Below, one piece after another: positions 1 through 7,618 of a stretch of 64,000 nt of DNA (the first letter of the stretch is position 1; each line of letters starts with the position of its first letter). The DNA is from Chloroflexota bacterium (GTDB taxonomy: Bacteria > Chloroflexota > Anaerolineae > J036 > Brachytrichaceae), in the NCBI GenBank assembly GCA_025354985.1, contig JANXLU010000087.1, forward strand, positions 82,813 through 146,812, given 5' to 3'. The position numbers and the translations under genes were made by a program. The notes beneath the pieces are model-generated. The model was not told the DNA's origin. It searched no databases and was given only the letters and a program-made list of their open reading frames with translations.

Positions 1-426
1 CCCATCCCCTTGCGTCGCGCCTTGCGAATAACCTCCAAGCGCAGCTCTGATCCAGACAATGATGACGCTTGGCGATAGAACTTGGCGAACATTGGCCCGG
101 GTAAGCCCATAGCTTTTGTAGGCCTCGGCGTCAACGTCTGAGAAACAGTCCACCCCGGGTGCACGCTCGGCGCAAAAAACCTTGGTATCGGCTGGTTTGC
201 TCATGGTAACTACCACAAGCCACGCACCGGCAGCTTCGATTTGAGGTCGGAGTTTGGCCAACCTGGCCAATTCTGCGCGGCAAAAGATTCACCCAAAGTG
301 ACGGACAAACGATAACAATACCAACCCGGTCGCGCAGACCTCGGACAGTGAACGTGTGGCGCTTTCAAAAGCAATAAGCGGTATGTCTGGAGCAACGTCG
401 CCAACAACCAGTCGATTGGATTTCAT
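1..426 (-). CDS. Peroxiredoxin-like (AhpC/TSA, thioredoxin-fold) protein with in-frame TGA, putative selenocysteine (UxxC); 3' end runs off the window
   Basis: ATG at 426. Translation is MKSNRLVVGDVAPDIPLIAFESATRSLSEVCATGLVLLSFVRHFG-[TGA 289-291]-IFCRAELARLAKLRPQIEAAGAWLVVVTMSKPADTKVFCAERAPGVDCFSDVDAEAYKSYGL..GDG. The frame is the same on both sides of the TGA. The TGA sits where Cys homologues carry the first Cys of the G-C-P-F-C type redox motif. Confidence 0.6.
254..270 (-). promoter_or_regulatory. SECIS-like hairpin downstream of the TGA in the peroxiredoxin-like gene
   Basis: mRNA UUGGCC-AGGUU-GGCCAA: perfect 6-bp stem with a 5-nt apical loop containing GGU. It starts 18 nt after the UGA. 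Confidence 0.4.
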
Positions 427-459: not shown

Positions 460-951
460 TTAATCAACGTTATAGACCACTACGTCCTTGACACGGTAAC
501 CTAGCACGATTCCACACGGCTCGCTGGCCTTCATAGTCACCAGTGTTCGCGACAAACGAGGCGTATAGGAAGAGCGCGACTCTGGCGGGGCGATGGCCCA
601 CATACCCTGCAGTTCGACCAGCCAAACCGGCGTCGTTGGTGACTCATTGGTTCGAATCGTATTACGATCTGTGTAAATCTCGGCCATGGCATCTCCAAAC
701 GTGGACTGACGCACCGACACCACATTTTGTGCACCCACGCGTTGCCAGGGTCCGCGAGATCCCGCAAATCTCAAAACCATCCGAGCTGCTTGTTCCGGAT
801 TGCTCACCGGGCACGTAGCGGCAAATTTTTGGGCCTCCTCGAGTTGAATCGGTTCTCGTAAGTCGCGCGGCAGTGCATCCACGGCATCACATGCCAATAA
901 CAGCCCCGACAGAATCACCAGGAACACGAACCCAAAGAGCGAAATCCTCAT
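460..951 (-). CDS. Hypothetical secreted protein or lipoprotein
   Basis: ORF 460..969. The internal Met gives MRISLFGFVFLVILSGLLLAC, a hydrophobic signal sequence ending in a lipobox-like L-L-A-C. No recognisable catalytic motif. Confidence 0.45.
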   Translation of the reverse strand: MRISLFGFVFLVILSGLLLACDAVDALPRDLREPIQLEEAQKFAATCPVSNPEQAARMVLRFAGSRGPWQRVGAQNVVSVRQSTFGDAMAEIYTDRNTIRTNESPTTPVWLVELQGMWAIAPPESRSSYTPRLSRTLVTMKASEPCGIVLGYRVKDVVVYNVD

Positions 952-997
952 TGCTCGGCCATGATACAACCATCACAATCGGGTTACGATTGCTCCC

Positions 998-3420: not shown

Positions 3421-4131
3421 ATGAATATCACCATTATCGGAGGCGCTGGCACCGTCGCCAGCCTGATCATTCCTTATTTGAGCGTGGATCATACCGTTCG
3501 GGTATATGACCTTAAACCACCGCCGGATCGCACACTCGCACACACCGTGGGGACGGTGAATGACTATCCTTTGATGCTCCAGGCATTACAAGGCGCAGAT
3601 TCCGTGATCTACATGGCAATGGGTACAATAAACTGGAGCGAACTCCAGGGAATAGATACCGGGTTTGACGCAAACGTCAAAGGCCTTTATCTTGCCCTCC
3701 GAGCCGCGCGCGAAGCAAATGTCGGGCACGCGATCTATACCAGCAGTATGTCGGTATATGACGGTGATCTGATGAGCAGATATTTCTACAATGAAGACCT
3801 TCAACCCGATGGCCGCAACCTTTACGCGCTCACCAAATATTTTGGTGAATTGGTGTGTCGAAACGCCTGTGTTGAATTTGGAATGAGTGTCAACGCCTTG
3901 CGAATGTGCTTTCCCGTCTCAGATGCGCACTGGCAGGAGTTGGTGGCCGCCGGTCAGTTTACGCTGCATACGGCCGCCAGTGATCTCGCCCGTGCAATGA
4001 ACGCCGCCCTGAGACATCGAAATGCGTTTCAGGTGTACACCATAAGTGGCGAATACGAAGGAAAAGTGTTAAATATGGACAAGGCCCGGCGCGAGCTTGG
4101 CTGGGAACCCAACGCACGACCAAACTCATGA
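3421..4131 (+). CDS. NAD-dependent epimerase/dehydratase (SDR) family protein
   Basis: N-terminal Rossmann motif MNITIIGGAGTVAS and a Y-x-x-x-K (YALTK). Its stop overlaps the next start (ATGA at 4128-4131). Confidence 0.7.
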   Translation: MNITIIGGAGTVASLIIPYLSVDHTVRVYDLKPPPDRTLAHTVGTVNDYPLMLQALQGADSVIYMAMGTINWSELQGIDTGFDANVKGLYLALRAAREANVGHAIYTSSMSVYDGDLMSRYFYNEDLQPDGRNLYALTKYFGELVCRNACVEFGMSVNALRMCFPVSDAHWQELVAAGQFTLHTAASDLARAMNAALRHRNAFQVYTISGEYEGKVLNMDKARRELGWEPNARPNS

Positions 4132-5243
4132 CAACCTCACTCCTTGCAGACCTTGGCATCCGCCCTTTGATAAATGCAAACGCGACGCTGACGCGTCTTG
4201 GCGGCAGCTTGATGCCATCCGAAGTCGTTGATGCCATGCGGGATGCGTCACACCACTGGGTGGATTTGGCTGAATTGCAACGTGCCGTAGGTGCGCGGCT
4301 GGCATCAATGACCAGGAACGAGGGCGCACTGGTATCAACTGGTGCCGCAGCCGGCCTGACGCTGGCCGCCGCGGCGCTCATGACCGGCGATGATCCATCG
4401 TTGATCGCCCGTTTGCCAGATGGCGGAGGCTTCGCGCGAAATGAATTCATAGTCCACAAATCCCACAGAAATGGCTATGACCACAGCATACGATCTGCAG
4501 GCGGAAAGATCGTGGAAATTGGTTCCGCATTGCAGACTCACGAATGGGAATTGACTTCTGCGATCAATCCGCACACTGCCGGGATTTTTTGGTTTCAAGG
4601 AGCCATGACCGGAATTGGCGATCTACCGTTTTCAACAGTTGTTGACATCGCCCGAGACCATCAAATTCCAGTTGTCGTCGATGCTGCCGCACAGTTGCCA
4701 CCCGTAGAAAATCTTTGGCGCTTTACACGAGCCGGGGCTGCGTTGGCGATTTTTAGCGGTGGCAAAGACCTGCGCGGTCCACAAACAACCGGGCTGTGCG
4801 TAGGCAATGCAAAGTTAATTGAAACGATGAGGCTCAACGGCAGCCCAAATCACAGCGTCGGTCGTGGATTAAAAGTGGGCAAGGAGGAGCTGGGGGGCTT
4901 GCTGGCTGCCGTAGACCGTTACCTAAAGTTGGATCACGCGGCACGATCCATTGAATGCGAGGCTGTCGTCGCACATTGGAATCGGGAGCTATGTCGCATA
5001 CCAGGGCTCCAGGCTGAACGAAGCTTCCCAAACGAAGCCGGACAACCCCTGCCCCGTTCACATGTAACGTTTGACGCATCGATCAGCGCTCAATCAATCG
5101 TGACCAAATTGATGGCGGGTGATCCAGCTGTTTCCGTTGCGTTTGGCCGGAATAATGACATATATTTAAATCCCATGACGCTTGAAAATCACGAGGATGA
5201 AATCGTGCTCAACCAACTTGTGTTAACGCTGACCAAACCATGA
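4128..5243 (+). CDS. SelA/DgaE-like PLP-dependent enzyme (not a canonical selenocysteine synthase)
   Basis: 371 aa. The FSGGKDLRGPQTTG motif resembles the PLP-Lys motif FSGDKLLGGPQ of the SelA family. It lacks the SelA N-terminal domain. Translationally coupled on both sides (ATGA overlaps). Confidence 0.6.
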   Translation: MTTSLLADLGIRPLINANATLTRLGGSLMPSEVVDAMRDASHHWVDLAELQRAVGARLASMTRNEGALVSTGAAAGLTLAAAALMTGDDPSLIARLPDGGGFARNEFIVHKSHRNGYDHSIRSAGGKIVEIGSALQTHEWELTSAINPHTAGIFWFQGAMTGIGDLPFSTVVDIARDHQIPVVVDAAAQLPPVENLWRFTRAGAALAIFSGGKDLRGPQTTGLCVGNAKLIETMRLNGSPNHSVGRGLKVGKEELGGLLAAVDRYLKLDHAARSIECEAVVAHWNRELCRIPGLQAERSFPNEAGQPLPRSHVTFDASISAQSIVTKLMAGDPAVSVAFGRNNDIYLNPMTLENHEDEIVLNQLVLTLTKP

Positions 5244-6481: not shown

Positions 6482-7618
6482 GTGGCCAATCTTTCTACCG
6501 AATTTCCGATCACACAATCAACCGCTTATTTGAACACCGCCGCCCAGGGGCCGTGGCCGACGCGTACGGTCGAGGCTGTGCATCAAGCTGCGCAACATGC
6601 CCAGTTTCTTGAATTCGACCGCGCGCATGGCGAACCGTCGATATTTCTCGAGACCCGCACCCGACTGGGTCGGCTGCTAAACGTCGACCCAGTCGATTTG
6701 ACATTTGGACCGAACACGACATACGGTCTAAATCTTTGCATGCATGGAATTGACTGGAAGGTAGGAGATAACCTGGTTGTGCCGTTTAATGAATTTCCTT
6801 CGGTGCAATATGCCATCGCGCATCTACCCAAGATTGGCGTTGAGGTTCGATTGGTAGCGTGGTCGGGTAGCGGACCCACTGTTCCACAAATCATGGAGCG
6901 GGTGGACGCTCGCACTCGGGCGGTCATATGCTCGGCAATCGCGTGGGACACCGGTTATCGCATGGATCTCGAATCCCTGGGAGCACGGTGTGAAGCGGCC
7001 GGGTGCCTGCTGGTCGTGGATGGCATCCACGCTGTAGGTTCCGAGCAGCTTGATCTTAAGGCCCTTCGTGTTTCCGCGCTCTCATTACATGGTTATAAGT
7101 GGTTGATGGCTGGTTTTGGATGCGGCGTGCTCTATGTCTCTCCAGCTGCAATTGACCGCATTGGCCCCTCGTTTATCGGCCCGCAAGGCGTATCGGGCAA
7201 CCAAATGTTGATGCATGCCGATCTGCCGTGGAAACCCGGGGCACAGCGATATGCGGCCGGGACAGGAAATCAAATCGGTGCAACCGCGGTAAATGCTTCG
7301 CTCACGCTCATTGAAGAACTTGGTATCGCCAACATTCGTAGCGCAAATCATGCACTAGCCGACGCCATAGAAGCCGGTGTTCGCCGGCAGTTACCCGGGG
7401 CCAACGTGCTTAGATCACATGACCCGGTCCATCAAAGCGCGATTGTGGTATTTACAACGGGTAGTGTTGATCGCGATACAGCCCTTATTAACCACTTGGA
7501 TGCGGCCGGTGTCGTTGTAGCGCTGCGACCCGCAGGGCTGCGCGTGTCGCCTCACCTGTTCAATTCTGAAGCGGATGTTGAACGCCTGTTGCGGGCTATC
7601 AGTACTTTTTCGCCTTAG
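6482..7618 (+). CDS. Aminotransferase class V / cysteine desulfurase-like PLP enzyme
   Basis: 378 aa with a GTG start. Contains YLNTAAQGPWP, LVVDGIHAVG, and LSLHGYKWL (PLP-Lys region). Last gene of the 3421-7618 co-directional run. Confidence 0.75.
   Translation: MANLSTEFPITQSTAYLNTAAQGPWPTRTVEAVHQAAQHAQFLEFDRAHGEPSIFLETRTRLGRLLNVDPVDLTFGPNTTYGLNLCMHGIDWKVGDNLVVPFNEFPSVQYAIAHLPKIGVEVRLVAWSGSGPTVPQIMERVDARTRAVICSAIAWDTGYRMDLESLGARCEAAGCLLVVDGIHAVGSEQLDLKALRVSALSLHGYKWLMAGFGCGVLYVSPAAIDRIGPSFIGPQGVSGNQMLMHADLPWKPGAQRYAAGTGNQIGATAVNASLTLIEELGIANIRSANHALADAIEAGVRRQLPGANVLRSHDPVHQSAIVVFTTGSVDRDTALINHLDAAGVVVALRPAGLRVSPHLFNSEADVERLLRAISTFSP

Follow-up and report, generated by a model that had tools for sequence, protein, structure and literature searches.

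The window, that is, the whole stretch of 64,000 nucleotides analysed here (G000:C91:82813-146812), cuts through a gene at its first position. On its minus strand, a single frame runs from an ATG at 426-424 through one TGA at 291-289 and stays open to window position 1, as had been reported in a preliminary description of this DNA made from the sequence, and beyond the window it continues for 41 further codons to a TAG stop (G000:C91:82687-82812, 126 nt), which gives a whole gene of 183 codons and a product of 183 aa. The read-through protein is MKSNRLVVGDVAPDIPLIAFESATRSLSEVCATGLVLLSFVRHFG-U-IFCRAELARLAKL...AITPVR, and the surroundings of its predicted redox motif read ...LVLLSFVRHFG-U-IFCRAELARLAKL... 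(Table 1). Because no clear Shine-Dalgarno sequence was seen upstream of ATG 426, this codon was taken as the start from the lengths of the orthologues, whose own starts fall 42-50 codons before the U; a GTG at 429 is an alternative start. The default ORF listing contains here only an out-of-frame ORF of 65 aa (210..407), the same shadow ORF to which the preliminary description had drawn attention.

The ORF upstream of the gene, of 169 aa, had no Pfam or NCBIfam match; it begins with a hydrophobic stretch ending in L-L-A-C, which is lipobox-like, and its N-terminus looks like a lipoprotein signal. The downstream neighbour is rpe (TIGR01163, 270 bits). Neither of them was adjacent to any of the orthologues, and no flanking ORF family common across lineages was found, the sole shared "family" being the gene's own antisense shadow. 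Given that no neighbour is conserved, the genomic context provides no functional clue.

Table 1. Location of the predicted selenoprotein gene and its elements, the upstream ORF (window positions) and the selenium machinery of the same genome (contig positions).
Feature	Location	Strand	Basis or remark
Predicted UxxC selenoprotein gene, in-window codons 1-142	1..426	minus	SelL-related / Prx-like2 thioredoxin-fold family
Predicted Sec codon, in-frame UGA (U46), first position of the U-I-F-C redox motif	289..291	minus	Column comparison and PRXL2B 9us9 alignment
TGC codon of Cys49, second residue of UxxC	280..282	minus	Invariant C in the family alignment; aligned to 2cx3
Bacterial SECIS core (predicted), 7-bp stem UUGGCCA/UGGCCAA, loop GGU at 261-263	254..270	minus	Fold and comparison
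Upstream neighbour, 169-aa ORF	460..969	minus	End lies 33 nt upstream of the selenoprotein start
tRNA-Sec (selC)	C45:85632-85724		65.3 bits; ARAGORN likewise SeC/tca
selB	C68		317 bits
selA	C45:142369-143706		510 bits
selD	C61:49614-50549		381 bits on TIGR00476; one in-frame TGA

Conservation of the TGA column and selection downstream

Orthologues were collected from 40 related genomes and, by extension, from a 400-genome sample of the phylum, which together yielded 46 family members. A strong orthologue was present in 12 of the 40 related genomes, 11 of them with exactly one TGA (FLRHFG-U-xFCR) and the remaining one, genome G012, with TGC. Phylum-wide, the motif was UxxC in 27 members, UxxU in six and CxxC in 13; the gene studied here, with one TGA and a TGC at the second position, is not a UxxU form. 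The earlier proposal that the TGA stands in place of the first Cys of a CxxC motif agrees with this column, in which 33 of the 46 relatives carry TGA and 13 carry Cys. A non-Cys residue at this position had been named as evidence that would count against the proposal, and none other than Sec or Cys was found among the 46 relatives, the codons being only TGA (33) or TGC/TGT (13).

The same description had also considered that orthologues in close relatives might end at the TGA. They do not: the same TGA is read through, and across five closely related pairs (dS 0.36-1.45) the 128 codons after it had a dN/dS of 0.083-0.134, from which it follows that the downstream part is translated. Judged from the sequences compared, the recurrence of the same TGA column together with the hairpin described below in 33 relatives is more than chance.

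The candidate SECIS element

The hairpin listed in Table 1 lies within the codons for L-A-R-L-A-K, its stem beginning 18 nt and its loop 25 nt after the UGA; an alternative pairing has 6 bp with an A-GGU-U loop and a spacing of 24 nt. Folded alone it reaches -9.5 kcal/mol (z = -2.5). The published bSECIS model calls for a loop of 3-9 nt, a stem of 4-16 bp, a distance of 16-37 nt from the UGA to the loop and an MFE of at most -7.5 kcal/mol, together with a G in loop positions 1-2, typically in the form N-G-[G/U]-N-N (PMC13188914), and the hairpin at 254..270 lies within all of these limits. A hairpin with a GGU apical loop, previously suggested as a bacterial SECIS, is therefore present and fits that consensus. 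When the 70 nt downstream of the UGA were folded as a single sequence, the MFE structure was another one (z = -0.97 against shuffles), and because the favoured structure is different and its energy not unusual, the case for the hairpin rests on comparative evidence.

RNAalifold recovered the same helix from 11 orthologues, with 92% of cells paired and double changes at three of the seven stem pairs, and when the partner column was shifted by 1-3 positions the pairing fell to 4-58%. The double changes are TTG/GCC to TTA/GCT at all four sites and are confined to one AT-richer sub-lineage, in which codon usage could contribute, and for this reason they were weighted below the conservation of the AGG codon in the loop; the relatedness of the sequences also makes their counts dependent on one another. 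Of the 12 Sec forms with Arg in the loop, 11 encode it by AGG, a codon that makes up 5.2% of Arg codons genome-wide; for the Arg four codons upstream of the loop only CGN codons occur, and at the loop itself the Cys-form sister from G012 has CGC. The AGG codon would thus represent a cleaner SECIS signal than the double changes in the stem.

Across the family, a hairpin was counted when it had at least 5 bp, a G in the loop and a start 14-24 nt after the Sec or Cys codon. Such a hairpin follows 31 of the 33 Sec forms and three of the 13 Cys forms, a difference whose nominal P of 4e-6 is overstated because the sequences are related. In a more distant subclade, the stem has another sequence with the same geometry and an AGUU loop. 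Within the taxonomic family of the studied gene, the sole orthologue with Cys is that of G012 (L026, G012:C4:3682-4203). It has a stable GC-rich hairpin of -14 kcal/mol at the SECIS position, left over perhaps from a recent switch from Sec to Cys, or else simply the coding palindrome of L-A-R-L-A.

Selenium machinery and the use of TGA in the genome

The preliminary description had proposed a search of the genome for selB, selC, selD and a full-length selA, and all four genes were found, each above its curated cut-off (Table 1). SelD of the same genome is probably a selenoprotein too, as indicated by its in-frame TGA. TGA terminates 784 of the 2215 long open frames in the genome and is the commonest of the three stops; it is an ordinary stop here, and therefore the code is not reassigned. 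Among the relatives, selB was present in nine of the 11 carriers of Sec forms, the other two being MAGs that are 87% and 67% complete, and the well-completed genomes without selB had no copy of the gene. This co-occurrence is consistent with the use of Sec but weakly discriminating, as 33 of the 41 relatives carry selB.

A selA-like gene within the window, at 4128-5243 (+), was considered as selA and rejected, since it belongs to the DgaE family (selA_rel, TIGR01437, 197 bits) and reaches 46.7 on the selA model, whose cut-off is 267.9; its product is a PLP ammonia-lyase-type protein. At 6482-7618 (+) there is a gene of the class-V aminotransferase / cysteine-desulfurase family, flanked on one side by the DgaE-like and amidohydrolase genes, and its similarity to the selenocysteine lyase SclA is weak (81.6 bits, cut-off 525).

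Family assignment and fold

The full-length protein matched NCBIfam NF040769, "SelL-related redox protein", with 124.6 bits (cut-off 120; E = 3e-36), over residues 12-178 and model positions 3-172 of 173, while the window fragment alone scored 88.1 bits. With this fragment, the Pfam matches were AhpC-TSA (47.5 bits), Redoxin and AhpC-TSA_2 (PF13911; 30.2 bits, threshold 27). The nearest PDB structure by sequence was human PRXL2B (9us9, E = 0.005), in which RRFG-C-VV-C aligns with RHFG-U-IF-C.

In the alignment with a BCP peroxiredoxin (2cx3), Cys49 is matched to the peroxidatic Cys, and U46 takes the place of the Thr/Ser in the peroxiredoxin TxxC. The PxxxTxxC motif is absent, and the protein has instead R-H-F-G-U-I-F-C, with an invariant Arg at the position of the Pro and Sec or Cys at that of the Thr. 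With U46 at the Thr/Ser position and no Pro of PxxxT, it was regarded as a peroxiredoxin-like protein carrying a thioredoxin-type motif. The description of the product as a peroxiredoxin-like AhpC/TSA protein holds with respect to the thioredoxin fold and the AhpC-TSA match, but it does not extend to a strict peroxiredoxin, as PxxxTxxC is missing. By sequence, the protein is assigned to the Prx-like2 / SelL-related oxidoreductases of CxxC type.

A structure model was built for a Cys homologue (P0004, 44% identical) from a 24-sequence alignment, and this model stands in for the Sec protein. The model reached a pLDDT of 91.9, with the CxxC (residues 50-53) at the junction of a strand (39-45) and a helix (51-66). 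Its best PDB match was again PRXL2B (E = 2e-10, TM 0.70/0.81), followed by AhpE, Tpx, BCP and ResA/TlpA.

Distribution, paralogue and phylogeny

The named relatives are mostly Anaerolineae/Chloroflexota, with farther members in Saprospiraceae, Myxococcota, Armatimonadota and others. The maximum-likelihood tree of the 46 sequences separates an RHFG-UxxC/CxxC clade, which includes the gene studied here, from an R[HW]L[GA]-Uxx[C/U] clade. A minimum of six changes of the Cys label, or of eight changes across the three states, is needed on this tree, and its well-supported branches force at least two Cys-label changes. The G012 Cys form is the sister of the studied gene inside a Sec clade, and UxxU arises at least twice. 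On three MAG contigs from Anaerolineaceae/Anaerolineales/Chloroflexi (L069, L072 and L076), two family copies each were observed within ~4-6.5 kb, namely a TGA form (U-[IM]-F-C-REWLAQL) beside a TGC form (C-I-F-C-REWL[HY]K).

Outside the window, the same genome encodes a SelL-type paralogue (G000:C66:48583-49113; locus L036, ~1474-2070, + strand) with the motif FLRHLT-U-HF-U-TDYLVQL and two in-frame TGAs three codons apart, which scores 107 bits on NF040769, below the cut-off of 120. Its hairpin, CUGGUGC-AGUU-GCAUCAG (-9.2 kcal/mol, z = -3.9), lies 18 nt from the first UGA and 9 nt from the second, and one SECIS could serve both UGAs. The same UxxU gene is present in the congeners G002, G004 and G005.

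Representation in public databases

In a search of 5.8 billion predicted proteins, the matches were mostly C-terminal fragments of 109-148 aa, which correspond to 60-73% of the query, and the gene is therefore systematically truncated in annotation. Some of these fragments begin with MFCRSELARLA, their first codon being the one that immediately follows the TGA. The full-length public entries are Cys forms only, and for N-terminal fragments of 45 aa and 46 aa nothing is on record in the public data. Public gene calls break the gene at the TGA; the preliminary description had likewise spoken of a probable UxxC selenoprotein missed by ORF calling.

Discussion

The gene shares with the NF040769 SelL-related proteins the R-H-F-G-[U/C]-x-x-C motif and a length of ~180 aa, and there is no difference of substance between them, the studied copy being the Sec (UxxC) form shortened by gene callers. 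SelL, a selenoprotein of eukaryotes and marine bacteria, has a diselenide motif, UxxU. By the name of the NCBIfam model, it belongs to the same superfamily, and its redox motif occupies the corresponding place in the thioredoxin fold, but the studied gene has UxxC with one Sec and falls in a different tree subclade from the UxxU forms. PRXL2B (PDB 9us9/9usa), the prostamide/prostaglandin F synthase of the AhpC-TSA_2 (PF13911) family, is the top match in the PDB by both sequence and fold, with its CxxC aligned to the UxxC, although it is eukaryotic, has Cys instead of Sec and is only ~22-26% identical; nothing in the bacterium pointed to a prostaglandin-type substrate. Typical peroxiredoxins (BCP/PrxQ, AhpE, Tpx) have the same fold, with Cys49 on their peroxidatic Cys, but they carry PxxxTxxC where the studied gene has R-H-F-G-U-x-x-C, a motif that suggests thioredoxin-style CxxC chemistry instead of the peroxiredoxin mechanism.

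Selenoproteins of this kind have been known since 2004-2005, and the family, its use of Sec and its type of SECIS are already described. Prx-like proteins with a thioredoxin-like UXXC were among the selenoproteins of the Sargasso Sea survey (PMC1088965), and the GOS survey listed "Prx-like 1" (pfam00578, UxxC), counted in 225 Sec and 2,740 Cys forms, and termed SelL "a Prx-like protein" (PMC2398784). Later catalogues include a "Prx-like thiol:disulfide oxidoreductase" (PF00578, UxxC/UxxU) as a high-confidence prediction (PMC9312934, PMC13188914). This catalogue family has in common with the studied gene the AhpC-TSA domain, a bacterial SECIS within the coding sequence, many Cys homologues and a function that is predicted only, and both have a thioredoxin-like UxxC where Sec-peroxiredoxins have TxxU. 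That its representative WP_010940744.1 and the studied gene belong to one HMM family is something we infer from the description only.

The current study showed that the gene is continuous through the UGA, that the UGA column of the family holds only Sec or Cys, that the SECIS is conserved, that the codons past the UGA are under purifying selection and that the genome has the Sec machinery, and we consider it very probable that the in-frame TGA is a selenocysteine codon and that the locus holds a real selenoprotein gene of a known Sec-using family. Its product would be one thioredoxin-fold thiol/selenol oxidoreductase of 183 residues in the SelL-related (Prx-like2) family. SelB and tRNA-Sec would recode the UGA at 291-289 to Sec, recruited through the in-coding SECIS 18 nt downstream, and Sec46 would be placed at the N-terminus of the first helix, the site of the attacking cysteine in CxxC proteins. 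Sec46 and Cys49 may then cycle between the selenol/thiol and the selenenylsulfide, and such a cycle would reduce or isomerise some disulfide or oxidised substrate; we infer the insertion of selenium, the redox cycle and the substrate from the sequence of the gene and of its relatives.

Other explanations of the in-frame TGA were weighed against this reading. A pseudogene or split gene, in which the TGA is a true stop that leaves a 45-aa N-terminal peptide and perhaps a separately initiated C-terminal fragment, appears very improbable. TGA is the commonest normal stop of this genome and the Sec forms are represented in public sets by C-terminal fragments only (109-148 aa), but such database fragments are the default of gene callers at any in-frame TGA, and in the structural model a C-terminal fragment would be left without the initial beta strands of the fold and without its redox motif. 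Moreover, 33 genomes from many families share the TGA at this column, both halves of the gene are in one frame, and beyond the TGA dN/dS is ~0.1, at dS values of up to 1.4. The probability that the base itself is wrong, the real codon being TGC or TGT, is slighter still and close to negligible: the genome is a 98-contig draft, but the same TGA with a matching SECIS and the AGG codon recurs in at least 30 other, independently assembled genomes, and a single-base error would create neither a SECIS nor an AGG codon.

The UGA might also be read without Sec, either by near-cognate insertion of Cys or Trp or under a reassigned code, which would give CxxC or WxxC and no selenium. Bacterial Sec-UGA codons are misread at a low level under selenium starvation, and the Cys forms of the family (13 of 46) are evidently functional. 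Against this stand the role of TGA as an ordinary stop, the complete Sec machinery and a SECIS with a SelB-type, G-containing loop that is tied to the TGA forms and for which a general suppressor has no need, so that we give this explanation as little credence as the split gene. Insertion of selenocysteine at the UGA is thus the reading adopted here.

With regard to the history of the family, we also considered that it toggles repeatedly between Sec and Cys, with the SECIS held as a standby element. This idea comes from the near-palindromic L-A-R-L-A peptide, the G012 hairpin, the changes on the tree (at least six of the Cys label, eight over all states) and the repeated appearance of UxxU, and we regard it as rather unlikely. 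The UxxC and UxxU paralogues of one genome could be stages of such toggling or partners in a selenium-based redox relay.

Overall, the main value of these results lies in a correction of annotation, namely a gene of 183 aa whose catalytic residue is predicted to be selenocysteine, for which, as for dozens of its relatives, the public calls are fragments without the active site. The gene adds to what is apparently a selenoprotein-rich genome, which also encodes a SelD that probably contains Sec and the UxxU paralogue.
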